Part shown: one piece after another, positions 1 through 14,822 of the stretch
Numbering within the stretch: position 1 is the stretch's first letter
How the letters are laid out: the number at the start of each line of letters is the position of its first letter
DNA from: Candidatus Omnitrophota bacterium
GTDB taxonomy: Bacteria; Omnitrophota; Gorgyraeia; Gygaellales; Profunditerraquicolaceae
Direction of reading: 5' to 3'
Assembly: GCA_016782485.1 (NCBI GenBank)
Contig: JADHYK010000002.1
Location: 1-46,696, forward strand
DNA length: 46,696 nucleotides
Notes under the pieces: model-generated
Database searches by the model: none
Seen by the model: the letters and a program-made list of their open reading frames with translations, nothing else
What the model was told of the DNA's origin: nothing
Program-made: the position numbers and the translations under genes

Positions 1-98
1 CTCTGGTGCATCAGAAGGTTTCTGGCCATGCTCCTTAAGGTCGCCTTGCGCCAGCTGGTAAAACGGTTTAATCTAAACCTTGATTTTCGATGTCTCAT
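1..98 (-). CDS. rplQ: 50S ribosomal protein L17, N-terminal fragment (runs off window start)
   Basis: Own minus-strand translation from the ATG at 98 gives MRHRKSRFRLNRFTSWRKATLRSMARNLLMHQ, a typical L17 N-terminus. It starts 2 nt after the rpoA stop, as in alpha operons. Confidence 0.85.
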   Translation of the reverse strand, partial: MRHRKSRFRLNRFTSWRKATLRSMARNLLMHQ

Positions 99-99
99 G

Positions 100-1092
100 C
101 TAAGTTTTTTTCAGTTTCTTTGTATCCACCTGCATGCCTAAAGTCAACCCCATTACCAAAAGCAATTCTTTTATTTCATTTAAGGACTTCTTGCCGAAAT
201 TTTTAAAACCGAGCATCTCCTCTTCCGTCCTCTTAACCAGGTCTGCGATAATCTTAATTCCGGCCTCCCGGAGGCAATTGGAGCTTCTTACCGATAACTC
301 CAGTTCCGAAATAGGAAGCCTCAATTTCTCGTATACCGCCATTTCTTCTTTGGACATCTCCGGCTCATCTTCGGCGATATCCTCCGGCAACTGCCCGAAA
401 TTAACAAAAATATCCAGGTGCCTCTGTAATATATTGGAGGCATAAAGCAGCGCATCTTTCGGGGTTATTGCGCCGTTGGTGAATATCTCCATTATGAGCT
501 TGTCATAATCGGTCCTCTGGCCGACCCGGGTATTCTCAACGTAATAGTTTATTTTTTTAACCGGCGTGAAAATGGAGTCTATGGGGATTACGCCTACGGC
601 ATTATCCTCCCTTTTATTCATTTCGGCAGGCACATACCCCCTCCCCCTTGAAACCTCCATCTCGATATGGAATTTGGTGTCTTTGGTCAATGTGGCGATG
701 TGTAAATCCGGGTTAACTATCTCTATCGACTCATTGAGCTCTATGTCCTTGGCCTTCACCTCTCCCTTAGAGTTTTTCTTTATATATATCAACTTGGGAA
801 TCTTGGAGTGAGAATTCAATATCAGGCTTTTAATGTTCAAAATTATCTCGGGCACATCCTCAAACACCCCGCTTATCGTGGAAAATTCATGTTGAATACC
901 CGCTATTTTAATGGAAGTAACCGCACTCCCCTCTATAGAAGAAAGCAAAACTCTCCTGAGAGAATTTCCTAAAGTTACCCCGTAGCCCCTTTCAAAAGGA
1001 GCGGCAAAAAATTTGCCGTAAGTAGGCGTATAGCTAGACTCTTCACACTCCAATCTTTTTGGTAGCTGAAAATCTCTCCACTTTATACCCAT
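100..1092 (-). CDS. rpoA: DNA-directed RNA polymerase subunit alpha
   Basis: 330 aa ORF with a recognisable alpha NTD and CTD (ELSVRSSNCLREAGI). AAGGAGG lies 5 nt upstream of the ATG. It follows rpsD. Confidence 0.97.
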   Translation of the reverse strand: MGIKWRDFQLPKRLECEESSYTPTYGKFFAAPFERGYGVTLGNSLRRVLLSSIEGSAVTSIKIAGIQHEFSTISGVFEDVPEIILNIKSLILNSHSKIPKLIYIKKNSKGEVKAKDIELNESIEIVNPDLHIATLTKDTKFHIEMEVSRGRGYVPAEMNKREDNAVGVIPIDSIFTPVKKINYYVENTRVGQRTDYDKLIMEIFTNGAITPKDALLYASNILQRHLDIFVNFGQLPEDIAEDEPEMSKEEMAVYEKLRLPISELELSVRSSNCLREAGIKIIADLVKRTEEEMLGFKNFGKKSLNEIKELLLVMGLTLGMQVDTKKLKKT

Positions 1093-1104
1093 CTATTCCT
1101 CCTT

Positions 1105-1222
1105 AATGAACGCTTAACTTACGGAACGAGTGAAGCGAGTGAACGTAAGTTAATGCGTGAATTAATCCCGAAGCGTGCGCAGTAGATTTCGCAAGAAATC
1201 TACAAGCGTTTACGCGAGGGAC
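1105..1222 (-). repeat. Composite element E1 in the rpsD|rpoA spacer: PU-A variant (1165-1222, ATCCCGAAG..CGAGGGAC) plus hairpin H copy 1 (helix 1110-1158)
   Basis: Read directly from the sequence. Same architecture as 9456-9542, 15137-15278 and 27553-27664. Confidence 0.85.
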
Positions 1223-1228
1223 AACTGT

Positions 1229-1855
1229 CTATTTCGAATACAACTCGACTATCAACTGTTCCTGTATGGGCTGCCGAATATCTTCCTTCTCGGGCAGCCT
1301 TAACACCTTGGCGCTAAATGCCGCCGCATTAAACTCCAGCCACGAAGATACCGCCCTATCTTTTGAAACCTCCAGGTTTTCCTTAATTTTATTCAGCGCC
1401 TTCTCCTTGGCCTTCAACTGGATAAGGTCGTCTTTGTCAACCTGATAAGAGGGTATATTCACACGTTTTGAATTTATATAGATAAAATTATGGCGCACGA
1501 TCTGGCGTGCCTGCGCCCGCGAGAGCGCTAATCCCAGGCGGAATACTACGTTATCCAGCCTTCTTTCCAATTGTTGCAACAATATCTTTCCGGTAACACC
1601 TTTTGATTTGGCAGCAATATAAAAATAACGGCGGAACTGCCTCTCTAAAACCCCGTAAATCCTCTTTACCTTCTGCTTTGCCCGCAGCTGCAGGCCGTAA
1701 TTGGAAAATTTGGTCCTGGACTGGCCGTGCTGCCCCGGAGCATAGCTTCTCTTGGTTATCGGGCATTTCTCGGTGGAGCATTTTGTGCCCTTTAAAAATA
1801 ACTTTTCTCTTTCACGGCGGCACAATCTGCATACTGCATTTATATATCGAGCCAT
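1229..1855 (-). CDS. rpsD: 30S ribosomal protein S4
   Basis: 208 aa ORF starting MARY..CRLCRRE with an S4 RNA-binding domain. Conserved order rpsM-rpsK-rpsD-rpoA. Confidence 0.97.
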   Translation of the reverse strand: MARYINAVCRLCRREREKLFLKGTKCSTEKCPITKRSYAPGQHGQSRTKFSNYGLQLRAKQKVKRIYGVLERQFRRYFYIAAKSKGVTGKILLQQLERRLDNVVFRLGLALSRAQARQIVRHNFIYINSKRVNIPSYQVDKDDLIQLKAKEKALNKIKENLEVSKDRAVSSWLEFNAAAFSAKVLRLPEKEDIRQPIQEQLIVELYSK

Positions 1856-1858
1856 CTA

Positions 1859-2248
1859 TTACACTCTCCGTTTCTTCTTCGGCCGGCAGCCGTTATGCGG
1901 AATAGGAGTCACATCCTTGATTGAAGTTACTACCAACCCTGCTGCCTGTAGAGCCCTGATCGCCGACTCCCTGCCGAATCCCGGCCCCTTTACGCAGACC
2001 TCGATTTCTTTAAGGCCGATTTCTTTGGCCTTTCTGGCCGCATCTGTAGCTGCTATCTGAGCGGCAAAAGGCGTGGATTTTTTCGAACCGCTGTAACCTA
2101 CAATACCGGGGGCAGACCAGACCAGGACATTTCCCTGTTTATCGGTTATGGTAATTATGGTATTGTTAAAACTTGCCTGTATATGGGCTATCCCTGAAGT
2201 TATGCCTTTGGCTATTTTCTTCTTTTTTGCCCTATCTTTTGTTGCCAT
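1859..2248 (-). CDS. rpsK: 30S ribosomal protein S11
   Basis: 129 aa ORF with the [18 protein letters not shown] motif typical of S11. Confidence 0.97.
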
Positions 2249-2266
2249 TTTTTCCTCTCTTTTAAA

Positions 2267-2327
2267 GATCCTTCGCTCGCTTTCGCTCGCTCAGGATGAC
2301 GGGCCAGCAGGAATCTGCGGCCCGTCA
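2267..2327 (-). repeat. Composite element E2c in the rpsM|rpsK spacer: stop-codon hairpin PU-C (2297-2327) plus PU-A (2267-2297)
   Basis: The mRNA reads AAA TGACGGGCC-GCAGATTCCTGCT-GGCCCGTCA TCCTGAGCGAGCGAAAGCGAGCGAAGGATC. The 9+4 bp stem includes the rpsM TGA. Confidence 0.85.
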
Positions 2328-2756
2328 TTTTGCGGGTTTAGCCGCTGCGGTAACAGCAGGGGCCTTCTTTGCTACCGACACCTCTTTTTTAATAACCGCC
2401 ATTCCGCCTTTACGCGGGCCCTTTCTGGTCCTGGCGTTTGTGCGCGTACGCTGGCCCCTTACAGGAAGCCCTTTTTTATGCCGCAACCCTCTCCAGGAAC
2501 CAATCTCCATTAATCTTTTGATATTCTGGGAGATATCGCGGCGCAAATCACCCTCCAGCCTGAAACCGCCCTTCTGTATGGCGCTGGTGATTCTGGAGAC
2601 CTCCTCTTCGGTCAGCTCTTTTGCGCGCTTATCCGGGCTAATCTGGGCTATTTGGAGAATCTTATTGGAAACCACCCTTCCGACTCCATATAGATATGTC
2701 AAGGCGATTTCAATCCTTTTTTCCTTGGGTATATCTACACCTAATATTCTTGGCAT
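2325..2756 (-). CDS. rpsM: 30S ribosomal protein S13 (Ala/Lys-rich C-terminal tail)
   Basis: 143 aa ORF with [10 protein letters not shown], a typical S13 start. The TGA stop is embedded in a hairpin stem. Confidence 0.96.
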
Positions 2757-2768
2757 ATTTTTTGGCTC

Positions 2769-2882
2769 CTATCCCTGTCTCTGCTTATGCTTAGGGTTTG
2801 AGCAGATTACCCGCACTACCCCGCGCCTCTTAACAATCTTGCACTTATCGCAAATTTTTCTTACCGACGCTTTTACTTTCAC
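2769..2882 (-). CDS. rpmJ: 50S ribosomal protein L36 (zinc-ribbon form)
   Basis: Not in the ORF track (37 aa). Own translation from GTG gives [37 protein letters not shown], a near-consensus L36. It sits between infA and rpsM as usual. Confidence 0.9.
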
Positions 2883-2931
2883 CCCGCCCTTCCTTCCCTA
2901 AACCCCGCTCTTATTTAGAAAGGGCGGGGTT
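2881..2931 (-). promoter_or_regulatory. Alternative-pairing RNA structure over the rpmJ SD and GTG start
   Basis: 2921-2930 (plus agggcggggt) is perfectly complementary to 2881-2890 (accccgccct, which covers the rpmJ start and SD flank). It also pairs locally with 2901-2910 (hairpin 2901-2931). Confidence 0.5.
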
Positions 2932-2936
2932 CATAT

Positions 2937-3152
2937 TTATTTAATCCTGAATGTAATCCTTCCCCTTGTCAAATCGTAAGGGGAAAGCTCCAACTTAACC
3001 CTGTCCCCCGGCAATATCCTGATGAAATTCATGCGCATTTTTCCTGAGACGTGTGCCAGAACAACATGGCCGTTTTCCAGCCCTACCTTAAACATAGCGT
3101 TGGGCAGGGTCTCTATAATCTTGCCTTCGGTCTCAATCAGCTCTTCTTTCAT
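2937..3152 (-). CDS. infA: Translation initiation factor IF-1
   Basis: 71 aa ORF with an S1-like fold sequence [16 protein letters not shown]. Confidence 0.96.
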
Positions 3153-3892
3153 GCCGTCAATATCTCCGGTCCGGTTTCAGTTATTGCCACAGTATGCTCA
3201 AAGTGCGCCGAAGGAAGGCCGTCTTTTGTAACCGCAGTCCAGCCGTTTTCCAAAATTTGCGACTCCCATCCCCCCATATTTACCATCGGCTCTATTGCCA
3301 GGACCATCCCGTTTTTTAAAACCGGTCCCTGATGCGGCCTGCCGAAATTAGGGACTTCGGGCTCTTCGTGCAATTGCGAGCCTATACCGTGTCCTACAAA
3401 CTGCCTGACTACAGAAAAGCCGTTCTTCTCAACATATTCCTGAACAGCATAAGAAATATCCGAAAGCTGATTCTGGACATGCGCCTTCTTAATCCCCTCG
3501 GAGAGCGCACGCCTGGTAACGTCAATCAGCCTTTTTGCCTGCGCAGATACTTCTCCTACCGGTAAAGTTACGGCTGCGTCGGAAAAATAACCTTCGTACT
3601 GTATCCCCATGTCAAGGCTGATGATATCGCCGTCTTTAAGTTTGCGCTCACCCGGTATCCCGTGAACAATCTCTTCGTTTATCGATGTGCATACGGTCGC
3701 CGGATACCCCCGGTAGCCTTTAAAGGCACTAACGGCATTCTCTTTGCGCAGTAAATCTTGCGCATAACGATCGACCTCAATGGTGGATGTGCCCAAAGTG
3801 ATAATCTTCTTTAGCTCCTTTATAATCCCGGCAAGAATTCTGCCTGCTTTTCTCATAGTATCTAACTCTGCTTTACTCTTTAAAAGGATCAT
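3149..3892 (-). CDS. map: Methionine aminopeptidase type I
   Basis: The ORF carries MetAP metal-ligand motifs. I prefer the ATG at 3892 ([10 protein letters not shown]) over the TTG at 3910 used by the ORF track. ATGA overlap with infA. Confidence 0.9.
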
Positions 3893-4541
3893 CCTGTATC
3901 CCTGCGGCAAGCCCGATGATACTTTTTAGGACAACTTCCGCATCTTCGTCTGCGGATAAACGATGGAGCTTTTGCATCTCTTGGTAATACTGAATCAGCG
4001 AAGCGGTTTCCTTTCTGTAAACCTCAAGGCGCTTTCTTACCGTCTCTTCTTTATCGTCACTGCGCTGATAAAGCCTGTCCCCGCAATAATCGCATACCGC
4101 GTCTCGTTTCGGAGGCATGTTCTTAATATGGAAGTTTGCGCCGCACTTACTGCAGACTAAACGGCCGGTAAGCCGCTGGATAATCACCGGCTCACTCGTA
4201 TCCAGATAAACCACCAAATCAACACCCATGTTCTTTTTTTGGAGGATGCCGTCAAGGGTCTTAGCCTGTACCAGATTGCGCGGGTAACCGTCAAGGATAA
4301 AACCTTCTTTTATGTCCGGCTGTTCGAATCTGTGCATCAACATCTTAGCTACCAATTCATCGGGAACCAGGTCTCCGCGGTCCATAAAGGCCCTGGCCTG
4401 CAGGCCAAGAGCAGTTGCCTCTTTAACGTTCTGCCTCAATATATCGCCAGTCGATATGTGCGGTAAGTTTAATTTCTCTGCCAGTATCTTTGCCTGTGTC
4501 CCCTTACCCGCTCCCGGCGGACCCAATAATATGATTCTCAT
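3873..4541 (-). CDS. adk: Adenylate kinase (zinc-lid type)
   Basis: 222 aa ORF with P-loop GPPGAGKGT and lid cysteines CSKC..CDYC. Confidence 0.96.
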   Translation of the reverse strand: MRIILLGPPGAGKGTQAKILAEKLNLPHISTGDILRQNVKEATALGLQARAFMDRGDLVPDELVAKMLMHRFEQPDIKEGFILDGYPRNLVQAKTLDGILQKKNMGVDLVVYLDTSEPVIIQRLTGRLVCSKCGANFHIKNMPPKRDAVCDYCGDRLYQRSDDKEETVRKRLEVYRKETASLIQYYQEMQKLHRLSADEDAEVVLKSIIGLAAGIQDDPFKE

Positions 4542-5884
4542 CGTCTTCCCCGGATACGCCCGGACTTAATAAAACCTTCGTAGTGGTGCGTCAAAAGATG
4601 CGACTCGATCTGCTTCAATGTATCAAGCATAACGCCCACCACGATCAGAATGCCGGTGCCCCCGAAAAAGGAAGCAACCAGGTATGGTATATTAAGCCAG
4701 GCCATCAGAAAATCGGGAAAAATGGCGATAAAAGCTATGAACAGCGCCCCGGCCAACGTAATCCTGGTCATTACATAGTCCAGGAATTCCGCCGTAGGTA
4801 CACCCGGGCGGATACCGGGGATAAAACCCCCGTATTTCTTCATATTTTCAGAAAGGTCGTTAGGATTAAAGACTATCGCGGTATAAAAATAGCAAAAGAA
4901 GGTGATCAGCAGCGCATAAACCGCCGTATAAAGTAAATGCCCTCTGACCAGGCTACTGGCTAACCTTTGAAAAGCAGGATTGGGAATAAAGGAAGCTAGG
5001 GTTGCAGGAAAAAGAATTATCGACTGCGCAAAGATGATTGCGATTACCCCCGAAGTATCCACTTTCAGGGGTATATAGGTAGATTGCCCCCCGTAAATCT
5101 TTCTGCCTACGATCCGGCGCGCGTACTGCACGGGAATCTTTCTCTGCCCCTGCGTTATAAGAATAACGGCAAATACCACCCCGATTAACAGGGCTGCCAT
5201 AATCGGTAGTTTCCAGAATTCAATACTCCCGGACTGGCCCGTTGAAGCAAACATTAGAATAGTCAGCTGATGAATGGCGGCGGGTATCCGCGATATGATA
5301 CCGGCGGTAATCACCAGCGATATGCCGTTACCGATACCCCTTTCCTGTATCTGTTCGCCCAGCCACATAATGAATATCGTCCCGGTAGTCAGAGTCAGCA
5401 CCGTGATCAACCTGAAACCCCATCCCGGATTCATTACTATCCTCAGGCCTTCGAATCGCGCCGGGTTTTCCAGCCAAAGCGCTATAAAAAACGACTGAAT
5501 CACCGCTAAAGCAACTGTACCATAGCGCGTATATTGATTTATCTTCTCGTAGCCGACCTTACCCTCCTTGGCCAGCTTTTCCAAGGCGGGTATAACTGCG
5601 GTCAAAAGCTGCATTATAATCGAGGAGGAAATATAGGGCATTATCCCTAAAGCAAAGATGGTAAGCCGCTCCATCGCGCCTCCGGAAAACATATTAATGA
5701 TCCCGAAGATTGTCCCTCCCTGCGTCTTAGCTATGCGGGCAAAAAACTCCGCCAGTGCCGCGGCATTAATGCCCGGCGTAGGGACATAACAACCAGTACG
5801 ATATATGGCAATAAGCGCGCCGGTTATAATAAGGCGCCTCTTTAAATCGGGGATTTTAAATGAATTAAGCAGCGCGCTAAGCAT
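4538..5884 (-). CDS. secY: Preprotein translocase subunit SecY
   Basis: 448 aa multi-pass membrane ORF in the canonical position after rplO. Confidence 0.96.
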   Translation of the reverse strand: MLSALLNSFKIPDLKRRLIITGALIAIYRTGCYVPTPGINAAALAEFFARIAKTQGGTIFGIINMFSGGAMERLTIFALGIMPYISSSIIMQLLTAVIPALEKLAKEGKVGYEKINQYTRYGTVALAVIQSFFIALWLENPARFEGLRIVMNPGWGFRLITVLTLTTGTIFIMWLGEQIQERGIGNGISLVITAGIISRIPAAIHQLTILMFASTGQSGSIEFWKLPIMAALLIGVVFAVILITQGQRKIPVQYARRIVGRKIYGGQSTYIPLKVDTSGVIAIIFAQSIILFPATLASFIPNPAFQRLASSLVRGHLLYTAVYALLITFFCYFYTAIVFNPNDLSENMKKYGGFIPGIRPGVPTAEFLDYVMTRITLAGALFIAFIAIFPDFLMAWLNIPYLVASFFGGTGILIVVGVMLDTLKQIESHLLTHHYEGFIKSGRIRGRR

Positions 5885-6446
5885 TCAATACCTCAATTTT
5901 TCCGCCCGTGCCTTTAATCTGCTCTGCGGCTCTGCGCGAAAACGCATGCGCCTGCACGGTAAGCGGATTCTTTATCTGGCCATCGCCTAGAATCTTTACT
6001 AATTTGTCCTTATCGCCGATAAGATTATTCTCCTTGAGCACATGAGGGTTTATGAGCGTTTCTTTTATCCTCGATAAGTCCTTCAGGTTTACAATCTGAA
6101 ATTGCCTTTTGCTTCTGGAGGTAAAACCCCTTTTCGGTATCCTGCGGATTAAGGGGGTCTGGCCGCCTTCAAAACCCGGATAAAAATCCCGGCCGGCACG
6201 GGAGGTCTGGCCCTTGCTGCCCCTGGTAGAGGTCTTGCCGTGCCCGGAACTGGGGCCGCGGCCTAAAATTCTTTTGCCCTTGTTTGCTCCGCGGACAGCA
6301 GGCAAATTATGTATACCCAGCCATTTAAGCGAAACCGCAACCTCTTTTTTCTTTTTTGCAGGCGCTTTTCTTTGAACTGCCGGCTTTGGCCCGGCTTTAA
6401 CTTCGTCTTTTTTTCTTATTTCTGGAATTTTTTTCTTCATCTTCAA
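5877..6446 (-). CDS. rplO: 50S ribosomal protein L15 with a Lys/Pro/Ala-rich N-terminal extension of about 40 aa
   Basis: 189 aa ORF. The L15 core starts near [27 protein letters not shown] found no in-frame ATG/GTG/TTG nearer the core. ATGA overlap with rpsE. Confidence 0.9.
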
Positions 6447-6895
6447 ACCTTCAGGTTCTTAAGGCCCTGCGCCGTAGCCTTAATAACATTAACCGGATTA
6501 TTGCTGGTAAGGCACTTGGTTAAAATATCTTTTATGCCCGCTGCTTCGCAAACTGCCCTTACCGGGCCTGCGGCGATTACACCGGTACCCTCCGAAGCAG
6601 GCTTCAATAAAACGCGTGCGGCACCGAATTCACCGACAATTTCATGAGGTATAGTGGAGCCCTCCATGGGGACCTGAAAAAGGCTCTTCTTTGCCTTAGT
6701 AAGCGCCTTACGTATGGCACTGGCAACTTCATTTGCCTTTTCCAGGGCAAAACCAACCCTTCCCCTGGTGTCGCCGACCACAACCAGAGCGCTAAAATGT
6801 AGTTTCTTACCGCCTTTGGTAACCTTTGTTACGCGATTTATGGTAATTACCCGTTCTATTAATTCCGGACCCTGTTCGATATTTACTTCACGCAT
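6443..6895 (-). CDS. rpsE: 30S ribosomal protein S5
   Basis: 150 aa ORF with motif [24 protein letters not shown]. Confidence 0.96.
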
Positions 6896-6898
6896 CTT

Positions 6899-7258
6899 TT
6901 AAAACTCCAATCCGCCTTTTCGCAGGGCCTCGGCAAAGATCTTAACCTTGCCGTGATATAAATAGCCTGCGCGGTCAAATATTATTTTTGTAATCCCTTT
7001 TTCCTTTGCCTTCTGGGCAAAGAGTTGTCCGAAAATTTCCGCTGCCTTGGTATTGACTGCAGCGGGTATTTTCTGCCTGACTTCTTTATTTGTGGTGGAA
7101 TAAGAGAACAGCGTTTTGTTGGCGGTATCATCGATGACCTGGGCGCTAAGATTCTTAAGGCTACGCTGGACTACCAGCCTGGGACGCTGGGTGGTTCCGC
7201 AGATCCTTAATCTTATGCGACGGTGGCGTTTTAATCTTAAGGCTTTTCTCTTGTTCAT
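6899..7258 (-). CDS. rplR: 50S ribosomal protein L18
   Basis: 119 aa ORF in the conserved spc-operon position, with [26 protein letters not shown] at the C-terminus. Confidence 0.96.
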
Positions 7259-7260
7259 AA

Positions 7261-7806
7261 TTATTTGGTGGTAGCCTGGGATTTACCGACCTTTTTCTTT
7301 ATATATTCTCCTGCAAAGCGTATCCCCTTGCCCTTATACGGTTCCGGCGGGAAAATCATGCGTATCTCCATAGCTACCTCGCCTACCTGCTCCTTATCAA
7401 TCCCGCTTACCATAATCTGATTAGGCTTTGGGGTTTCTATCTTTATACCTTCGGGTATGGGAAAATTCACCGGATGTGAAAACCCGAGCTGCATATTCAG
7501 GACCTTTCCCCGCACCTCGGCCTTAAACCCCACCCCCACTATCTCCAACTGCTTGGAATACCCTTCGGTAACGCCTTTAACCATATTAAAGATAAGGGCG
7601 CGAAAAAGCCCGTGCAGCGATTTATCTATCTTTGTATCGCTTAAACGCCCAAGAATAACCTGACCATCCTTTATCTGGAGGCTGATCCTGTCGGATAAAC
7701 TACGGCTCAAGTTTCCCTTCGGACCCTCTACAAATACCGTACCGTCCCTGACCTCTACTTTAACTGCCTGGGGTAAACTTATGGGTTTTTTTCCTATTCG
7801 TGACAT
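7261..7806 (-). CDS. rplF: 50S ribosomal protein L6
   Basis: 181 aa ORF starting MSRIGKKPI. No SD is visible. Hairpin H ends 9 nt upstream of the ATG. Confidence 0.96.
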   Translation of the reverse strand: MSRIGKKPISLPQAVKVEVRDGTVFVEGPKGNLSRSLSDRISLQIKDGQVILGRLSDTKIDKSLHGLFRALIFNMVKGVTEGYSKQLEIVGVGFKAEVRGKVLNMQLGFSHPVNFPIPEGIKIETPKPNQIMVSGIDKEQVGEVAMEIRMIFPPEPYKGKGIRFAGEYIKKKVGKSQATTK

Positions 7807-7810
7807 AATT

Positions 7811-7864
7811 AATGAGCACTTAATTTACGAACACGATAGTGTGAGTAAGTTAATGTGCGAATTA
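7811..7864 (-). repeat. Hairpin H copy 2 (helix 7816-7859), directly upstream of rplF
   Basis: Plus strand gcacttaatttac..gtaagttaatgtgc with the conserved apical gaacacgatagtgtga. Confidence 0.85.
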
Positions 7865-7865
7865 A

Positions 7866-7929
7866 CCCCGCACCTTTTTATTATTCAAAAGTACTTATAA
7901 AAACGTCTTGAATAGTAAAAGGTGCGGGG
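7866..7929. repeat. Single-copy long inverted repeat (13 + 7 bp stem) in the rpsH|rplF spacer
   Basis: ccccgcacctttt..tattcaa / ttgaata..aaaaggtgcgggg. The apical loop contains the palindrome aagtactt. Confidence 0.8.
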
Positions 7930-7985
7930 TAAGTTCGGCCAGACGACTTATGTTCACTTCGTTCCATAAGTCGTGGCCTCACTTA
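7930..7985 (-). repeat. PU-B copy 1 (TAAGTGAGG..CCGAACTTA unit); its first 3 nt are the rpsH TAA stop
   Basis: The mRNA reads TAAGTGAGGCCACGACTTATGGAACGAAGTGAACATAAGTCGTCTGGCCGAACTTA. Confidence 0.85.
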
Positions 7986-8378
7986 CCAAATATATCCGAT
8001 AACTTCTCCGCCTAAACCTTTTTCCCGGGCTTGTTTATCCGTCACTATACCTTGCGATGTGGAAATAATAGCTATCCCCTTGCCCCTTATAACTACTGGA
8101 ATCTTGTCGCGTTTTACGTATACCCGCAAACCAGACCGTGAGACGCGCCGGATATTTCTTATTGCGGGCCTGCCTGCGCTATACTTCAGGTGCACTCTTG
8201 CCGTGCCCTGCTTTTTATCCTCTATAATCTTAAAATCCTCTATGTATTCTTCCTTTTTTAGGATCTCCAGAATGGATTTGATGGTATTGGAAACAGGTAT
8301 ATCCACAACATCCTTCTTGGCCATGATGGCATTGCGTATTATCGTGAATACATCGGCTATTAAATCCGTCCTTGACAT
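7983..8378 (-). CDS. rpsH: 30S ribosomal protein S8
   Basis: 131 aa ORF in the spc-operon position. The TAA stop is the first 3 nt of repeat unit PU-B. Confidence 0.96.
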   Translation of the reverse strand: MSRTDLIADVFTIIRNAIMAKKDVVDIPVSNTIKSILEILKKEEYIEDFKIIEDKKQGTARVHLKYSAGRPAIRNIRRVSRSGLRVYVKRDKIPVVIRGKGIAIISTSQGIVTDKQAREKGLGGEVIGYIW

Positions 8379-8389
8379 CTATACTCCTC

Positions 8390-8575
8390 TCACCAGCTTG
8401 CCTTCCTTATTCCCGGGATCAACCCCTGCCAGGCCAGCTCCCTGAAACAAATCCGGCAAAGCTGAAACCTTCTTAAATACCCTCCGGACCTGCCGCAGAT
8501 ACGGCAGCGGTTATGTGCGCGCGTAGAAAACTTTGCCGGCCGCTTCCATCTTGCTATCTGTGAATTCTTAGCCAT
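8390..8575 (-). CDS. rpsN: 30S ribosomal protein S14, Z-type (zinc-binding, 61 aa)
   Basis: Two CxxC pairs (CRICGRS..CRIC) and the short length typical of S14 type Z. Confidence 0.95.
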
Positions 8576-8578
8576 CCC

Positions 8579-9145
8579 TTATTGGTTCTCCTGGTTTCTA
8601 AAAGGCATCCCGAATGCCTTGAGCAACTCTTTCGACTGCTCCTTGGATTTGCTGTTTTTTATTACGAAGGTAATATCCATGCCCTGCGTGCGGCTGATCT
8701 TATCATACTCTATCTCGGGAAAGATATTCTGCTCGGTCATTCCAAGCGTATAATGGCCGGCCATATCAAAAGCATCGGCTGAAACCCCCCTGAAATCTCG
8801 TATACGCGGAAGGGCGATACTAAGCAGCCGGTCCATAAACTCATACATTATTGCCCTGCGCAGGGTAACTTTGCAGCCGATTGCCTGCCCCTCTCTTATT
8901 TTAAAGTTAGAGATGGCCTTCTTTGCGCGCCTGATCACCGGCTTCTGCCCGGTAATCAATCCCAGTTCTTCCATGGATTTTTCCAATAACTTGATATCCT
9001 GGACCGCCTCTCCGACTCCCATATTCACCACTATCTTCTCTAGGCGCGGGGCGGCAAACCTGTTTTTGAGATTAAAGGCCTGCATCAACTGCGGGACAAT
9101 TTCATTCCTGTATTTTTCCAATAATCTTGGGGTAATTTTATTCAT
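8579..9145 (-). CDS. rplE: 50S ribosomal protein L5
   Basis: 188 aa ORF in the spc-operon position. Confidence 0.96.
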
Positions 9146-9453
9146 ATACCCTCTTTACAGCTCTTACAAAATCTTGATTTGCTGCCGTCTTTTAATACCG
9201 TAAAACCAACCCGCACAGGACGGTTACACTGCTTACAGAAAACCATCAGGTTGGAAATGCTAAGGGGGGCTTCTATCGAAACAATCCCTCCCTGCTGGTC
9301 CTGGCGCGTCTGGCGCTTATGCTTCTTGACCAGGTTTAAACCCTCAACCAGCGCACGCCTGCCTTCAGGCAGAAGTTCCAACACCTTGCCTTTTTTGCCT
9401 CTATCTTTGCCTGCGATTATCTGGACTGTATCGCCTTTTTTTATCTTAAACAT
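9142..9453 (-). CDS. rplX: 50S ribosomal protein L24
   Basis: 103 aa ORF with the KOW motif [20 protein letters not shown]. No SD. Hairpin H ends 7 nt upstream of the ATG. Confidence 0.96.
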
Positions 9454-9455
9454 AA

Positions 9456-9542
9456 AATGAACACTTAACTTACGAGCACGATAGTGTGAGTAAGTTAATG
9501 TGTGAATTTATCCTGAGGCTGCGCAAGCAGCCGAAGGATCTA
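9456..9542 (-). repeat. Composite element E1 in the rplN|rplX spacer: PU-A (9509-9542, opposite orientation) plus hairpin H copy 3 (helix 9461-9503)
   Basis: Plus strand tatcctgaggctgcgcaagcagccgaaggatcta, adjacent to acacttaacttac..gtaagttaatgtgt. Confidence 0.85.
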
Positions 9543-9553
9543 TTGTTCCCCTG

Positions 9554-9922
9554 TCAGATTACCTCTGGAGCCAACGATATAATCTTGGTAAAGTTTTTCT
9601 CCCTCAGTTCTCTTGCTACCGGCCCGAAGACGCGTGTCCCGCGGGGGTTAAACTGATTATCTATAAATACGATGGCATTGCGGTCAAACCTTAAGTAGGA
9701 ACCGTCGGGCCGCCTGATCGGCTTTCTCGTCCTTACTACAACCGCCCTGGCAACCTCACCCTTCTTTATTACCGCTCCGGGAGAAGACTCTTTTATGTTG
9801 ACATTAATTACATCGCCGACGTTAGCGAAACTTTTCCCTTTTGCCCCCAGGACGCCGATCATGGCAACGCGCTTGGCACCGGTATTATCCGCGACATCTA
9901 AAATACTACGCAGCTGAATCAT
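9554..9922 (-). CDS. rplN: 50S ribosomal protein L14
   Basis: 122 aa ORF starting [17 protein letters not shown]. Confidence 0.97.
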
Positions 9923-10196
9923 CAGTCTCCTCTTTTACCTGCGCATAACTAGCAGCCTTCTTAACTATGGCCGCAAGGCGATAGCGCTTATCCTTTGACA
10001 AAGGCCGGGTTTCAATGATGCGTACCGTATCGCCGATTTTTGCGGTATTATTCTGGTCGTGCGCCTTAAATTTACTGTACTTCTTCATGATTTTAGCATA
10101 CTTGGGATGCTTGCTCATTCTCATCACTCTGACGATAATGGTTTTCTGCATCTTATCGCTTATTACAATGCCCTCGTATTCTCTTCTTTTTCCCAT
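9906..10196 (-). CDS. rpsQ: 30S ribosomal protein S17
   Basis: 96 aa ORF in the S10-operon position. It overlaps the rplN start by 17 nt. Confidence 0.93.
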
Positions 10197-10197
10197 T

Positions 10198-10389
10198 CTA
10201 TTTCTCTTTCTTTTCGTTTAAAATGGTCTCGATGCGCGCAATATCCTTCCTGACCAGTGAAAACCTGTGCGGTTTCTCTACCCTGCCGCCATAACGCTGC
10301 AGATTAAGTTTGTACAGCTCCGCTTTAAGCTCTTCTTCTTTCTGGAGCAACTCCTCCCTGGAAAGACCGCGTAGTTGGTCTATCTTCAT
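10198..10389 (-). CDS. rpmC: 50S ribosomal protein L29
   Basis: The true start is the ATG at 10389 (MKIDQLRGLSREELLQKEEELKAEL, 63 aa), with GAAGGA 5 nt upstream. The 115 aa track ORF over-extends through the repeat-filled spacer. Confidence 0.92.
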   Translation of the reverse strand: MKIDQLRGLSREELLQKEEELKAELYKLNLQRYGGRVEKPHRFSLVRKDIARIETILNEKKEK

Positions 10390-10392
10390 CTT

Positions 10393-10456
10393 TATCCTTC
10401 GCTCGTTATTTTTCTGTTCTCGCTCAGGATGACCCCGAACGTAATCGAGGGGGTCA
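10393..10456 (-). repeat. Composite element E2c in the rplP|rpmC spacer: PU-C (10430-10456) plus PU-A (10393-10430)
   Basis: The mRNA reads AAA TGACCCC-CTCGATTACGTTC-GGGGTCA TCCTGAGCGAGAACAGAAAAATAACGAGCGAAGGATAAAG ATG. Confidence 0.85.
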
Positions 10457-10870
10457 TTTATGAATCCTGCTAATAAATTTTGTCCGTAACGGCAACTTAT
10501 AAGCCGCCAGCCTGAAACACTGCCGCGCATACTCTTCCTGCACACCGCCTAATTCAAATAATACACGGCCCCTTTTTATTACAGCAACCCAATGGTCCAG
10601 TTCACCCTTGCCCTTGCCCATACGAACTTCGGCGGGTTTTTTGGTTATGGATTTGTCCGGAAAAATCCTGATCCAGAGTTTTCCGCCCTTATGCAACTGC
10701 CGCGCAAGAATAACGCGCACGGACTCTATCTGCGTATTTTTAATCCAGCCGTTTTCCAGGCATTTTAAACCAAACTCTCCAAACGCCAATTCTGCGCCCG
10801 TTGTGGCAACTCCGCGCCTGGAGCCTTTCTGTAATTTCCGGTATTTTACCCTCTTGGGCATTAATGCCAT
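10454..10870 (-). CDS. rplP: 50S ribosomal protein L16
   Basis: 138 aa ORF starting [12 protein letters not shown]. The TGA stop is embedded in a hairpin stem. Confidence 0.97.
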
Positions 10871-10892
10871 CTTTTAAACCCTGGTATAATCA

Positions 10893-11561
10893 TCAAGACA
10901 TCCTCTTGTTGTTCCCATTATAGGATGTCTTCTTGATAAGAATATCGCCTTTATAAATCCAAACCTTGACCCCTATAAGCCCATAAGTAGTTAGTGCCTC
11001 GGCAAAGCCGTAATCAATGTCTGCGCGAAATGTCTGCAGGGGGACCTTTCCCTGCTTATAGGTTTCGGTGCGCGACATCTCGGCACCGTTAAGGCGCCCG
11101 GCACAACTCACCCTGATGCCCTGGGCACCGGCGTTTATCGACTGTTCCATAGCGCGCTTTACCGCCCTGCGGAAAGCGATCCTCTTCTCTAACTGCATAG
11201 CGATGTTTTCCCCCACCAACTGCGCCTCCAGCGCAGGCATCTTTACTTCCTCAATATCAATAGACATCTCTTTTTTAACGATGTTATTGAGGTCCTCGCG
11301 TAAACGTTCGATATCAGAACCGTGCCTGCCGATGATGATACCGGGGCGCGCACTGAATATGCGGATCCTTATCTTTTCAGTAAGCCTCTCTATAATAATC
11401 CTTGCCACCGCCGCATTTTTGCACTTTTCTTTAATAAATTTCCTTATCTTGTAGTCCTCGAGTATAAAGCGCGCAAAATAAGGCGATTTTGCAAACCAGC
11501 GGCTGTGCCACGTCCTTATAAAACCGACCCTGAGTATAAACGGATGAACTTTTTGTCCCAT
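10893..11561 (-). CDS. rpsC: 30S ribosomal protein S3
   Basis: 222 aa ORF starting MGQKVHP, with a KH domain. Confidence 0.97.
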   Translation of the reverse strand: MGQKVHPFILRVGFIRTWHSRWFAKSPYFARFILEDYKIRKFIKEKCKNAAVARIIIERLTEKIRIRIFSARPGIIIGRHGSDIERLREDLNNIVKKEMSIDIEEVKMPALEAQLVGENIAMQLEKRIAFRRAVKRAMEQSINAGAQGIRVSCAGRLNGAEMSRTETYKQGKVPLQTFRADIDYGFAEALTTYGLIGVKVWIYKGDILIKKTSYNGNNKRMS

Positions 11562-11564
11562 ATT

Positions 11565-11897
11565 TTATCCTTTAATATCCAGCTCTATTCTTATATGCGA
11601 AGTCCTCTTTTTAATCGGGGCGGCCCTGCCGAAAGCAGCGGCCTTAAACCTTTTCCAACTTGGGCCGGAATTGCAAACTATCTTTGATATGTAAAGCTGT
11701 CCCGGATTGAAACCTTTAACTTTTGCATTGGCTACTGCGGAGTTCAATATCTTTGCCAGAAATTCCTTCGGGCGTTTGTTTAATATCCGAAGAATGCTCT
11801 GCGCGGTCAAGACGTCCTTGTGGCGGATAAGCGCCATTACCTGCCTAACCTTCATAGGTGAAACCCTTAAAAACTTGCCCTCTGCCTTAACAATCAT
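11565..11897 (-). CDS. rplV: 50S ribosomal protein L22
   Basis: 110 aa ORF in the S10-operon position. Confidence 0.96.
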   Translation of the reverse strand: MIVKAEGKFLRVSPMKVRQVMALIRHKDVLTAQSILRILNKRPKEFLAKILNSAVANAKVKGFNPGQLYISKIVCNSGPSWKRFKAAAFGRAAPIKKRTSHIRIELDIKG

Positions 11898-11933
11898 TTT
11901 ATCCCCTAACTACCAACTACTATCTACTGACTA
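11898..11933 (-). repeat. Low-complexity GTAG/TAG-rich spacer between rpsS and rplV
   Basis: The mRNA reads TAGTAGTCAGTAGATAGTAGTTGGTAGTTAGGGGATAAA ATG. There is a tandem in-frame TAG TAG after rpsS. Confidence 0.7.
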
Positions 11934-12221
11934 CTATGTTTTATCCGGCGCCTTCTTTGCCTTTACCCCGCCGTGCCTTCTGAATATGCGCGTAGGGGAA
12001 AATTCTCCGAGTTTATGCCCGACCATATTCTCGGTAACAAAAACCGGGATATGTTTTTTTCCGTCATGCACCGCAAAAGTAAATCCTACAAATTCCGGGA
12101 TAATCGTCGAACGCCTCGACCAGGTCTTGATCGCCTGGCGGTTGGCAGAACGGCGTACCCGGTCAACCTTCTTCAAAAGCTTTTCATCTACAAACGGGCC
12201 TTTTTTTAACGAACGGGGCAT
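11934..12221 (-). CDS. rpsS: 30S ribosomal protein S19
   Basis: 95 aa ORF starting [12 protein letters not shown]. Confidence 0.97.
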
Positions 12222-12261
12222 AGTTCCTCCCTGCGGTCGTCAAAATTCAAATTACAAATTT

Positions 12262-12333
12262 CAAAATCCAAAATAAATTCTGTTTTTAATTTTAATTTTT
12301 GGATTTGGGATTTATTTTGACATTTGGATTTTG
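12262..12333. repeat. AT-rich long hairpin built from CAAAATCC/GGATTTTG-type repeats in the 122 bp rplB|rpsS spacer
   Basis: 12270-12278 pairs with 12310-12318 (9 bp). 12262-12269 pairs with 12326-12333 (8 bp). There is a 7-nt bulge and a 31-nt loop. Confidence 0.75.
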
Positions 12334-12343
12334 GCATTTGGAT

Positions 12344-13177
12344 TTATCCTCTCCTTTTAACTATGAATTTACTAGAATACCTCTTCTTATGCCTGGTCTT
12401 ATACCCCTTAGTCGGTTTTCCCCACTTGGACACCGGGTGGGGATTGCCCTGCCCGGATTTACCTTCGCCGCCGCCATGGGGATGGTCCACCGGGTTCATC
12501 GCCAACCCTCTTACCGTCGGGCGTGTTCCGAACCAGCGGCTCCTGCCGGCCTTACCCAAGACTATTGCCTCATGTTCTACATTGCCAACCTGCCCGATGG
12601 TAGCGTGACAATCAAGGCTGACCAGCCTAACTTCTCCGGAAGGAAGTTTTACGTGCGCAACTTCCCCCTCTTTTGCCATAATCTGCGCGCTTGAGCCGGC
12701 GCTCCTTACAATCTGCCCGCCCTGTCCCTTGCTTAATTCTATATTATGAATCGCGGTGCCTGAAGGAATATACCTTAAAAGCATGCAATTCCCTATTTTA
12801 ATTTCGGCTTCCTTCTGGTTTGATGAAACTACGCTATCGCCTACATTCAAACCTAAAGGCGCCAAAATATACCTCTTTACTTTATCAGGATATTCCAATA
12901 ACGCAATCCGGGAGGAGCGGTTGGGGTCATATTCAATAGCAGCGACCTTTGCCGGCACTTCAAACATATCCCTCTTAAAATCAACAATACGCATCATACG
13001 CTTGTGCCCGCCGCCATGGTGCCTGACGGTTATGCGGCCGTAAACATTCCTGCCCCCGGTTTTCTTTAGGGGCCGGATTAATGACTTTTCCGGCCTGTCT
13101 TTGGTAATCTCCGAAAAATCAGGGCCGCTCATCCATCGCCTGCCGCTGCTCGTAGGTTTAAATTTCTTTATTCCCAT
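12344..13177 (-). CDS. rplB: 50S ribosomal protein L2
   Basis: 277 aa ORF with motif [13 protein letters not shown]. Confidence 0.97.
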
Positions 13178-13179
13178 TT

Positions 13180-13458
13180 TTATGCTACCTCAATCTTCTG
13201 GCCATCTTTGAGCGTTACCACTGCTTTTTTAAGATCCCTGGTCCTGCCTAACTGGTATCTTACCCTTTTTAATTTCCCCGTTGAAATGAGGGTGTTTACG
13301 TTTTTGACTTTTACTTTATAAATTTCCTCCACCGCACGGCGTATCTGGATTTTATTGGCACAATTATTGACTAAAAAAAGGTATTTCCCCTCCGGTTCGT
13401 AAAGGGTTGTTTTTTCCGTATGGATCAATGCCCTGATTATATCGTGCGCGTTATCCAT
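13180..13458 (-). CDS. rplW: 50S ribosomal protein L23
   Basis: 92 aa ORF in the S10-operon position. Confidence 0.95.
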
Positions 13459-14111
13459 TATTTCAACCTGTTAGTAAGCTGCTCAAGCGCGCCTTTGGTA
13501 ATAATAATCTTGCGGTGCGCCAAAACTTCATATGAATGCGTATCCCTGGCGGCATTAACGTCTAAAAAACTTATGTTGCGCAGGGCCAGTTTCAAATTCT
13601 TATCTAATTTATCCAATAATAACAGTGTGCTGTATTTTTTTGCCCTGCCGGCAGACTTAAAGCTCATTAAATTAGAAAATACCATGGCTGCCTCTTTGGT
13701 TTTGGGTTTATCCAGCTTCAACTCATCTAAAACCATAAAGTTGCCCTCCTTAACTTTGGCGTTGAGGCTTGATTTTAATGCCAAACTTTTTAATTTCTTC
13801 GGCAGCTGGTAATAGAAATTCCTGGGGTGCGGGCCGAAAATAACGCCTCCGTGACGCCATAACGGAGAACGGATAGAGCCGACTCTTGCGCGGCCGGTGC
13901 CCTTCTGCCTCCAGGGCTTAACGCCGCCTCCGGAAACCTCTCCCCTGGTCTTTGTGCTAGCCAAACCTTTTCTTTGGCCCGCCCTATATGCCACCACTGC
14001 TTGATATAAAGAATCCTTATTGACGCTGCCGTCGAAAACCGCAGCGTTTAATTTTACTGAATCTATCTGTTTGCCCTCGCTATTGTATATAGGTAAGGTT
14101 ATTGGCTCCAT
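13458..14111 (-). CDS. rplD: 50S ribosomal protein L4
   Basis: 217 aa ORF with motif GGGVKPWRQKGTGRAR. Confidence 0.96.
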   Translation of the reverse strand: MEPITLPIYNSEGKQIDSVKLNAAVFDGSVNKDSLYQAVVAYRAGQRKGLASTKTRGEVSGGGVKPWRQKGTGRARVGSIRSPLWRHGGVIFGPHPRNFYYQLPKKLKSLALKSSLNAKVKEGNFMVLDELKLDKPKTKEAAMVFSNLMSFKSAGRAKKYSTLLLLDKLDKNLKLALRNISFLDVNAARDTHSYEVLAHRKIIITKGALEQLTNRLK

Positions 14112-14112
14112 C

Positions 14113-14772
14113 TTATTTATTAGCCGCCGGTTTTGCCTTGCTTTCCTGCTTTTCTACAGCCTTCTTTTTCTTTGCCTGCCTTATTATCAAACAACTGTTC
14201 TTAGGCCCGGGCACAGCCCCTTTTACCAGAATCAGATTTTTCTCGGCATCGGCCCTGATCACCCGCAGATTTTGTAAAGTTACCCTCTGGTCCCCCATAT
14301 GCCCGGGTAGATGCTGTCCCTTCCAGACTCTTCCCGGACTGGTAGAGGCGCCGATTGAACCTATGCGCCGATGCGACGTGGAACCGTGGCTCTTGGGGCC
14401 GCCATGCCAATTCCAACGTTTCATACCACCCTGAAACCCGCGGCCTTTTGAGGTGCCGATAATGTCTACGTAGTCGCCCGGCTTAAACAAATCGGCCTTT
14501 AACTCTTCACCGACAGCATACTCTCTTGAAGGGTCCTTTAAGACCTCCTTTATTACTCTACAGGGAGCAAGGTTCCTTTTCTTAAAATACCCTAAAAGCG
14601 GCTTATTGATGCGGTTTTCCTTTACCGGGCCAAAACCTATCTGTATGCTTTTCTCCTTAACCGCAAGCACAGTACAGGGGCCTGCTTCGATAACCGTGAC
14701 GCTGACGAACTTTCCGTCTTCGGCAAAAATATGCGTCATCCCTATTTTTTTCCCTAATATCCCTTTAGGCAT
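14113..14772 (-). CDS. rplC: 50S ribosomal protein L3
   Basis: 219 aa ORF starting MPKGILGKKIGMTHIF. The ATG directly abuts an 11-nt tandem repeat. No SD. Confidence 0.96.
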   Translation of the reverse strand: MPKGILGKKIGMTHIFAEDGKFVSVTVIEAGPCTVLAVKEKSIQIGFGPVKENRINKPLLGYFKKRNLAPCRVIKEVLKDPSREYAVGEELKADLFKPGDYVDIIGTSKGRGFQGGMKRWNWHGGPKSHGSTSHRRIGSIGASTSPGRVWKGQHLPGHMGDQRVTLQNLRVIRADAEKNLILVKGAVPGPKNSCLIIRQAKKKKAVEKQESKAKPAANK

Positions 14773-14822
14773 TTTCAGCGTAATTTCAGCGTAATTTCAG
14801 CGTAATTTCAGCGTATTTCAGC
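14773..14822 (-). repeat. 11-nt tandem repeat (plus tttcagcgtaa; mRNA TTACGCTGAAA): 3 perfect copies, one copy with a 1-nt deletion, and a partial copy
   Basis: Copies at 14773-14783, 14784-14794, 14795-14805, 14806-14815 and 14816-14822. The last unit abuts the rplC ATG. Confidence 0.9.

Follow-up and report, generated by a model that had tools for sequence, protein, structure and literature searches.

Covarying hairpins at ribosomal protein gene junctions of Candidatus Omnitrophota as probable terminal modules of a mobile, non-coding repeat family

The REP, BIME and REPIN sequences of proteobacteria, which are mobilized by RAYT Y1 transposases, are among the closest described relatives in design of the repeat elements reported here from Candidatus Omnitrophota. 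Both groups are extragenic imperfect palindromes with a conserved mismatch bubble, both are found alone or in inverted pairs with a spacer between them and build mosaics, and both lie in the transcribed spacers of co-directional genes and at 3' ends. Both also lack target-site duplications, and both keep their hairpins complementary among copies (for the definition of REPINs, PMC3337134). They differ in size (20-40 nt for REP palindromes, 55-70 nt for the Omnitrophota modules) and in their ends: the REP foot is GTAG, whereas the Omnitrophota termini read TNART-GA and TC-ATTNA, and the TAGA-TCCT of the Omnitrophota A modules is similar to, but is not, GTAG. The Omnitrophota elements have a third, long central hairpin and termini that carry stop codons, neither of which is found in REP or REPIN sequences, the host phylum is another one, and no Y1_Tnp domain is among the families listed around the Omnitrophota copies (fragments totaling ~0.7 Mb). 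MITEs resemble the elements in size (148-351 nt) and in being non-coding, multi-copy, bounded by terminal inverted repeats, and polymorphic in their insertion between strains, but a target-site duplication is expected of MITEs and is absent here.

A second set of likenesses is with the Correia elements of Neisseria, the ERIC/IRU elements of enterobacteria, and the BOX A-B-C elements of the pneumococcus, which are likewise non-coding sequences of 100-250 nt with imperfect terminal inverted repeats, dispersed between genes and polymorphic between strains. Elements of this type are co-transcribed with neighboring genes (PMC10969869). BOX (boxA-boxB-boxC) is also modular, with elements nested or side by side. 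Correia elements duplicate TA, and the Omnitrophota elements show no target-site duplication; unlike the Correia, ERIC and BOX elements, they have no promoter, integration host factor (IHF)-site or terminator consensus, each of their terminal repeats is a hairpin that covaries around an invariant bubble and bulge, and they are strongly polar to genes and without similarity to Rfam or to any named family. The ribosomal protein leaders in Rfam (L10, S10, L20 and similar) gave no match, and the elements lie beside 131 unrelated Pfam families, that is, they are not restricted to one kind of operon.

The Omnitrophota elements were traced from a 46,696-nt stretch of contig JADHYK010000002.1 (assembly GCA_016782485.1), here called the window, in which an earlier note had described a hairpin, H, in front of rpoA, rplF, rplX, rpsJ and rplL. 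Reading the sites directly, we found all five hairpins in place, with the noted coordinates accurate to within ~1 nt. Pfam confirmed the genes 3' of H as RpoA, L6, L24, S10 and L7/L12, and those 5' of H encode S4, S8, L14, EF-Tu and L10. The H copies were seen on the plus strand, and the neighboring genes, like all long open reading frames (ORFs) of the window, are on the minus strand. The apical core pattern matched exactly in four H copies against 0.00 expected from shuffles, and the 3'-arm pattern GTAAGTYAATG was exact in 5/5 copies, when 1.16 matches were expected if up to one mismatch was allowed. In the module alignment, we recovered the complementary distal 4-bp helices, the R:Y covariation and the bulged A that had been reported, as well as compensatory changes in the H stems and, for copies 2 and 5, the C·A mismatch. 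A listing of the spacers likewise bore out the AAGGAGG box before rpoA and rplL and its counterpart, the lack of a Shine-Dalgarno (SD) sequence before rplF, rplX and rpsJ.

The extent of H and the number of its relatives had both been underestimated. The AATTC and TCATT segments, taken earlier for conserved flanks, are indeed conserved, and they form a further 5-bp helix that closes a TC·TC internal loop, so that the hairpin is longer than noted by an outer stem that had been missed. As this outer stem belongs to the module, H ends only 0-2 nt before the ATG of rplF, rplX and rpsJ. A covariance model was then built from an alignment in which six H modules (the five of the window plus a sixth from strain L007) and five modules of a mirrored type, K, form one family. 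It returned 11 modules in the 46.7 kb at 60-73 bits, five H on the minus and six K on the plus strand, with the next match at 17 bits; the five copies of H thus stand, but as fewer than half of the 11 modules above 60 bits. None of these 11 lies inside a coding sequence of the window. The modules and the hairpins joined to them are as follows (positions in the window).

1103-1165, minus strand: right-type module H1 before rpoA, TTAAT-TC-ACGC-A-stem-loop-stem-GCGT-TC-ATTAA; 65 bits.
1166-1221, minus strand: A-type module joined to H1, TCCC-TC-..-TTC-GGGA.
2269-2296, minus strand: solo A' module between rpsM and rpsK, TCCT-GA-GCGAGCGAAAGCGAGC-GA-AGGA.
7809-7865, minus strand: H2, the right module of a full-length element, in the rpsH/rplF spacer; 72.8 bits.
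7866-7929, minus strand: central long hairpin of the full-length element, CCCCGCACCTTTT...AAAAGGTGCGGGG.
7930-7985, minus strand: Kd, the left module of the full-length element, whose first TAA is the rpsH stop; 62.9 bits.
9454-9510, minus strand: right-type module H3 before rplX; 68.2 bits.
9511-9542, minus strand: A module joined to H3, TAGA-TCCT-TC-GGCTGC..GCAGCC-TC-AGGA, from the repeat search.
15135-15191, minus strand: right-type module H4 before rpsJ; 68.7 bits.
15192-15278, minus strand: A-type mosaic joined to H4, whose TAG is the tuf stop, with a truncated TTAATTC linker.
18612-18702, minus strand: left-type module Ka (18643-18702; its TAA is the rpsG stop) with A' (18612-18642), in the rpsG/fusA spacer; 61.1 bits.
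23645-23743, minus strand: left-type module Kb (23689-23743) with A', between rpoB and rpoC; 68 bits.
27551-27607, minus strand: right-type module H5 before the SD of rplL; 73.3 bits.
27608-27664, minus strand: A module joined to H5, whose TAG is the stop of a shortened rplJ.
30212-30275, minus strand: variant left module with another inner hairpin (TAAGT-GA-CCCGCC..GGCGGG-GA-ACTTA), with A'; weak, 11.6 bits.
30451-30544, minus strand: Kc copy 1, left-type with A', within a 207-nt tandem duplication; 61.6 bits.
30658-30751, minus strand: Kc copy 2, left-type with A', beginning at the 3' end of tRNA-Thr.
36324-36414, minus strand: left-type module Ke (36357-36414) with A', beyond the ribosomal protein cluster; 60.3 bits.

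The rpoB stop is the TGA inside the TAAGTGA of Kb, the variant left module lies upstream of tRNA-Trp, and the stem of the central hairpin at 7866-7929 recurs in the loci L030, L103, L107 and L173.

H is thus the right-hand module of a modular element made of a left, a central and a right hairpin. The element typically measures about 150-250 nt, and 38 distinct full-length examples span 148-351 nt. Read in gene direction, the right module has the layout TNAAT-TC-NNNN-A-stem-loop-stem-NNNN'-TC-ATTN'A with a stem of 9-10 bp, and the left module, in mRNA sense, the layout TNART-GA-(NNNN-hairpin-NNNN')-GA-AYTN'A. The K modules mirror the architecture of H, and the six in the window (7930-7985, 18643-18702, 23689-23743, 30477-30544, 30684-30751 and 36357-36414) are placed directly after upstream stop codons; on the plus strand they read ..TTC-GGyC-A-TAAACTTATG-loop-CATAAGTTTA-GrCC-TCAC. 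Every H or K directly abuts another hairpin, with no spacer in between; this partner is either an A module (TCCT-TC-variable hairpin-TC-AGGA, preceded by TAGA) or a long central hairpin (CCCCGC...GCGGGG). Two-module half forms, A+H and K+A', are common. At rpsH/rplF, K, central hairpin and H make up a single unit of 177 nt. On both strands, the fold predicted for this unit is a row of three hairpins (z-scores -9.8 and -10.5).

The two ends of the element are imperfect inverted repeats of one another: over the first 7-20 nt, the left end agrees with the reverse-complemented right end at 62-71% of positions, compared with 22-24% in direct orientation. Outward-facing module pairs numbered 39, and the other arrangements within 400 nt came to seven same-strand pairs and one inward-facing pair. 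The inner hairpin sequences are free to vary, and the junction nucleotides are conserved. A closing helix between the two termini, which would give a four-way junction, was rejected, since minimum free energy folds and covariation both pair each terminus with its own linker.

Covariation extends throughout the stems. Across the 11 modules of the window lineage, 83% of positions in the 18 modeled pairs are paired compared with 68% in shuffles and 22-46% in shifted-register controls, and 11 of the pairs show double changes. When 143 distinct modules are taken, pairing reaches 98.8% in one main helix and 95.1% in the other, shifted registers give 28-44%, and there are 425 double-change cells against 114 in shuffles. 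The outer stem follows the same rule, for each of the five pairs beyond the TC/TC 2x2 loop is 91-98% Watson-Crick in 149 modules. In these 149, outer pair 2 is A-T in 118 and G-C in 27, which is the difference between AATTC/TCAT in H and AGTTC/TCAC in K, and outer pair 4 occurs as T-A (61), A-T (57), C-G (18) and G-C (2), so that it is Watson-Crick in 138/149 modules when 56 would be expected for independent columns. Pairs 6-8 are random, pairing ending right after pair 5, and the module boundary is therefore sharp.

Overall, the stems are 97-98% Watson-Crick with about 1% G:T. Among the modules on the start-codon side, where the module strand is the mRNA strand, the ratio of G:T to A:C is 4:4, and among those on the stop-codon side, where it is the antisense strand, it is 6:1; these ratios give no sign of G·U tolerance on mRNA. 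No wobble bias toward the mRNA strand appears among the few mismatches available, which are too few for a strand test because the stems are ~97% Watson-Crick. The right module presents U·C/U·C mismatches on the mRNA strand, which are not a stabilizing motif. The caution voiced earlier that H might act at the level of DNA was therefore well placed, the stems being nearly pure Watson-Crick on both strands.

Searches for known signals were negative. No Rfam family matched the elements of the window at the gathering score or at E≤1, the only Rfam matches in the window being two tRNAs; hammerhead, hairpin-ribozyme or k-turn readings of the GA/GA bubbles have no Rfam support. No IHF-site consensus was seen at the elements, and a promoter role was set aside for want of consensus sites there. 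An intrinsic terminator, that is, a GC-rich stem followed by a T-run, was likewise rejected: no terminator-like site coincides with any element in positions 1-20000, and the tails read TTAATTC.

Near-identical strains were found by exact look-up of the L12 and S10 proteins in ENA, Logan and NCBI, and they revealed three junctions that are filled in one strain and empty in another at 99.8-100% identity between the strains. At rplJ/rplL, the A+H block is present in the window and in L003 and missing from L001, L002, L004 and L006, where flanks that are 100% identical enclose 19 nt in place of block 27552-27682. L10 has 183 aa in the filled allele compared with 187 aa in the empty one, in which it abuts rplL. 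The 177 nt between rpsH and rplF in the window are represented by 4 nt, AGCC (TAA-AGCC-ATG), in L007 and L008, the latter being 100.0% identical to the window over the adjoining 17,150 nt. The reverse case is rpmC/rpsQ, which is compact and empty in the window and holds a sixth A+H element in L007. A fourth pair, L155 (filled) and L101 (empty), has flanks that are 92% identical. An assembly artefact was excluded, since ENA, Logan and NCBI assemblies, made independently, contain the same alleles, both filled and empty. ENA scaffolds have 100-N gaps at or beside several of these junctions.

All four filled/empty pairs are replacements rather than clean insertions, with the loss of a few native bases; in the filled rplJ allele, about 20 nt of 3' coding sequence were replaced. 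No target-site duplication above chance was detected when direct repeats of 2-8 nt were sought with boundary shifts of -5 to +3. A TAA/TAA match, seen in 18/38 elements, lies within the paired outer stems that covary with the linkers.

The family also extends beyond this lineage. The S10 protein assigns the window to Candidatus Omnitrophota, and the closest GTDB representatives have S10 proteins 89%, 83% and 78% identical to it. The covariance model, the check that had been proposed for H, matched not only the modules of the window but also other Omnitrophota species and metagenome contigs: full-length and half elements occur in two further Omnitrophota species (L018 and L030, the latter with one element at rpsH/rplF and one before rplX), and there were 161 matches in 538 kb of metagenome loci. 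A cross-species pattern of the frame was found in at least 120 JGI metagenome contigs, where about 2 were estimated by chance, and in two IMG/VR contigs. The exact H-core pattern had no match in GTDB representative genomes or JGI metagenomes, from which this lineage's own assemblies are evidently absent. In other phyla, 59 loci with 784 kb of ribosomal operons gave 0 matches to the covariance model. At the corresponding sites, the junctions of most other Omnitrophota are compact (-1 to 28 nt), and some hold other hairpins.

The genes beside the elements in the metagenome contigs are diverse. The 117 flanking ORFs scanned (100-330 aa) fall into 131 Pfam families of a housekeeping kind and include ABC transporter, PilZ, IspD, MlaE and PTS EIIA genes, with only ABC transporters, PilZ and similar families recurring. 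Clustering of 652 ORFs yielded no recurrent transposase, and in the Pfam scan of the 117 flanking ORFs (~0.7 Mb of fragments) the listed families, the 25 with the most matches, include no transposase, recombinase, integrase or Y1_Tnp. At two different loci, L144 and L161, the central hairpins are identical at 55/56 positions, and the terminal modules differ only by compensated pairs and loops, a pattern in which modules either reassort or diversify by an arm-matching process.

Orientation relative to genes is strongly biased. The H and K subtypes face opposite ways with respect to genes. Among the 120 distinct H-type ends, 76 adjoin the start of a co-oriented ORF, with a median of 11 nt from ..TCATT to the start codon (about half at 7 nt or less) and an SD-like motif in between in 36/76; 11 adjoin an opposite-strand stop, usually inside TCATTAA, and the remainder face small ORFs, promoter-like sequences, opposite-strand terminators or tRNA. 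K-type (TCAC) ends were beside a stop in 21 cases and beside a start in none by the gene set and in one by the ORF test. Where ORFs of at least 100 aa define the context, 48 elements are tandem and co-oriented, 9 tandem and reversed, 5 divergent and 3 convergent. The reversed copies are genuine, as in L169, where a K end lies 5 nt before an ATG. In contigs with two elements, orientations agree in nine (seven co-oriented with the genes; L169 and L190 reversed) and conflict in L125, and only about 13 contigs are informative for comparing polarity to transcription with polarity to replication.

At the upstream side, the first three bases of the left module are usually the stop codon of the preceding gene. 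Upstream ORFs end within the element at offset 0 or 1 (TAA) in 26 cases and at a TGA at +4 in 10, so that at least two frames are used, and changes in the stop codon are matched in the linker, which is CTA where the stop is TAG (L139) and TCA where it is TGA (L166). Downstream, the element runs right up to the SD or ATG of the gene that follows. Flush ends can be attributed to selection that keeps the stop and the SD-ATG intact in very compact operons.

Strains that are nearly identical differ by gains and losses of the elements, which are also dispersed over unrelated genes and species. On this evidence, they would behave as mobile DNA of the MITE or REP-BIME kind, and we consider H to be, probably but with some reserve, the right-terminal module of an apparently undescribed MITE/REP-BIME-like family of mobile non-coding repeats of Candidatus Omnitrophota. 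Among the roles suggested earlier for H, strain presence/absence and the scatter among unrelated genes and species favor that of a REP-like mobile hairpin; that of RNA processing sites is a minor possibility. The elements are probably moved by a trans-acting enzyme that recognizes folded hairpins through the conserved outer stem, the 2x2 bubble and the bulged A; in this proposal, it is the enzyme's requirement for a folded hairpin that would keep the two arms complementary. Elements would be retained at gene junctions, where their presence costs little: the stop codons of the termini (TAA, and TGA one frame over) would close the upstream reading frame, and the copies that survive would be those reaching exactly to the SD or ATG of the following gene. 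Any effect on ribosomal protein expression would then be incidental, and a side effect at the RNA level, on processing, stability or coupling, is possible by analogy with Correia and ERIC elements.

Several observations count against the mobile reading. No candidate gene for the enzyme is among the families listed near copies, target-site duplications are absent, and the filled/empty pairs replace native bases instead of being clean insertions. The strong orientation bias is unexpected for random insertion, which would need selection or a polar mechanism to account for the 48:9 ratio and for K ends beside stops. Finally, the many compensated differences between copies of one genome could also stem from long-term selection in place.

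An alternative is that the elements are RNA elements between cistrons, host-selected and perhaps of mobile origin, which are transcribed within operons and work at the mRNA level through their three stacked hairpins. Processing by RNase III or another enzyme could take place at the central hairpin; the upstream message could have its 3' end protected by the left hairpin, and the downstream message its 5' end by the right one, or the right hairpin could hold stop and start close, preserving translational coupling. The gene polarity (76/120 H ends at co-oriented starts and the tandem ratio of 48:9), ends that abut the stop codon on one side and the SD or ATG on the other, hairpins that are contiguous without linker bases, and varying inner hairpins with conserved junction nucleotides, as in structured RNAs, all speak for an RNA role, as does the lack of an SD at rplF, rplX and rpsJ after insertion. 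There are precedents in Correia elements, which are cut by RNase III, and in ERIC elements, which affect RNase E sites (PMC10969869). We nevertheless regard this alternative as unlikely. The elements are missing from the same junctions in near-identical strains and are hence dispensable there; G·U pairs are nearly absent, without mRNA-strand wobble bias and with the stop-side G:T to A:C ratio of 6:1 falling on the antisense strand; nine genuine reversed insertions, such as L169, lie inside co-directional gene pairs; the U·C/U·C mismatches of the right module would not stabilize it on mRNA; and flush ends are equally expected from plain selection in very compact operons. The narrower proposal of a shared translational operator for rpoA, rplF, rplX, rpsJ and rplL, bound by one protein or ribosomal component, which the earlier note had listed, draws on the five copies directly upstream of ribosomal protein or RNA polymerase genes in the window and can hardly be upheld. 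The module also flanks genes of many other kinds in the 131 Pfam families, from ABC transporters to PTS EIIA, mirror-image copies stand behind stop codons and a tRNA, sister strains lack copies at these genes, the corresponding junctions of related species are compact at -1 to 28 nt, and no ribosomal protein leader of Rfam matches.

Folded single-stranded DNA could itself be the substrate, either as attC-like recombination sites for a tyrosine recombinase or as IS200/IS605-type ends (PATEs) for an HUH enzyme, in which case the modules would not be termini of a classical cut-and-paste MITE. Integron attC sites share with the elements a variable sequence on a conserved structure (outer stem, central bubble, extrahelical base and variable tip), a design for single strands read by structure, and they also lie between co-oriented genes; IS200/IS605 ends and PATEs are alike in subterminal hairpins that are read as folded single strands, in the lack of a duplication, and in an expected orientation bias. 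One orientation per informative contig, whatever the direction of the genes (L169 and L190 reversed, seven co-oriented), would fit a link to replication direction. Against this, the attC boxes RYYYAAC/GTTRRRY are absent, the outer stem being TNAAT/ATTNA, each element has three hairpins, the neighbors are core operon genes and not cassettes, and no integrase or Y1 transposase is among the families listed in ~0.7 Mb of flanking sequence. Elements of the IS200/IS605 type lack inverted-repeat ends and integrate on the 3' side of a fixed tetra- or pentanucleotide, whereas the Omnitrophota ends are inverted repeats with no conserved target motif outside the element, and L125 has opposite orientations. 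We therefore think it very improbable that the elements are folded-DNA sites of these known types.

Only a small likelihood attaches, in our judgment, to the idea that the elements go beyond selfish repeats, as a phylum-specific "junction cassette" or as substrates of an arm-rewriting enzyme that acts on folded DNA. As a cassette, the three abutting hairpins would allow 150-250 nt to stand between translationally coupled genes without uncoupling them, and the element would supply the stop codon, fold stop and start close together, and perhaps be processed to leave hairpin-capped mRNAs. In the arm-rewriting version, the enzyme would read folded DNA, and a copying or repair step would rewrite one arm from the other, which would explain how L144 and L161 share a center with fully compensated differences in their terminal modules.

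Omnitrophota is an uncultured phylum, reported as consisting mostly of ultra-small cells. We found no literature description that pairs the phylum with MITE, REP or intergenic repeats, its main genomic survey makes no mention of repeats, and, with no match in Rfam either, the family appears to be an undescribed part of the repeat content of Omnitrophota. It has direct consequences for genomes of this group, as it breaks metagenome assemblies, rewrites the C-termini of conserved proteins (L10 with 183 rather than 187 aa), and parts genes that otherwise lie 4 nt apart. Convincing covariation in front of essential genes may come from the ends of mobile repeats, and covariation alone is no proof of an RNA regulator. 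The fixed frame of outer stem, 2x2 bubble and bulged A around hairpins that vary gives a clear definition of the substrate for a moving enzyme, and the insertions tolerated in coupled ribosomal protein genes offer a natural test of the span of structured RNA that translational coupling can bridge.

The module repertoire of the element, a modular non-coding repeat of left, central and right hairpins at gene junctions, exceeds the right-type (H), left-type (K), A and central (C) modules; further recurrent hairpin types occur in the window and in metagenome copies.

Window 10419-10469 and 19209-19259: recurrent hairpin type CTCGCTCAGsATGACCC..GGGTCAT
Central loops of L097, L099, L100, L116, L132, L173 and L015 (loci outside the window): central-hairpin type with core CAAAATT-CTCTTCGATA-AATTTTG
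L144 3088-3264 and L161 11679-11873: element pair at unrelated loci
L213 1422-1481 and L214 3318-3376 (IMG/VR contigs): central arm plus H module

The second of these types is present in many metagenome copies. Comparison of the L144 and L161 element sequences revealed central hairpins identical at 55 of 56 positions; the left and right modules carried several base-pair changes, all fully compensated, and their loops differed too. Both contigs with the central-arm and H-module pattern, L213 and L214, are classed as viral.

The following window features, with the L10 gene of the near-identical strain L001, concern individual junctions.

Window 27662-28213 and L001 2436-2999: L10 gene, filled (element present) and empty allele, respectively
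Window 30429-30564 and 30636-30771: perfect 136-nt repeat, tandem duplication (offset 207 nt)
Window 14773-14816: rpsJ|rplC spacer, filled by ~4 copies of the 11-nt tandem repeat TTTCAGCGTAA
Window 12222-12343: rplB|rpsS spacer, 122 nt, AT-rich and of low complexity, with imperfect CCAAAT-type repeats (CCAAATG, TCCAAAT)

L10 ends in ..KPEGEAQ* (183 aa) in the filled allele versus ..KSEQTKEEGGK* (187 aa) in the empty one, the new tail being encoded by 21 nt. Each 136-nt copy comprises a K+A' element and the final ~22 nt of tRNA-Thr. The 3' end of this tRNA is precisely where the upstream copy begins; the arrangement resembles an att-like or element-associated duplication. In strain L007, the rpsJ|rplC junction holds an A-rich spacer, unlike the TTTCAGCGTAA repeat of the window. 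At rplB|rpsS the L007 spacer is only 25 nt and unrelated, which makes this a further junction that varies between strains, though of a different kind.

Short-read assemblies were evidently broken by the elements. ENA scaffolds of the window lineage contain 100-N gaps, several of which coincide with or adjoin repeat-bearing junctions, where NCBI MAG contigs also terminate.

L007 14969-15068; L008 17210-17309; L001 169-268: 100-N gaps
L009 12759-12858, 14866-14965 and 17181-17280: 100-N gaps
L125 (metagenome contig, 7,756 nt) 1-62 and 7695-7756: H-type modules in inverted orientation

Both termini of L125 fall within H-type modules, and this arrangement could be a composite unit or an assembly break at repeats.
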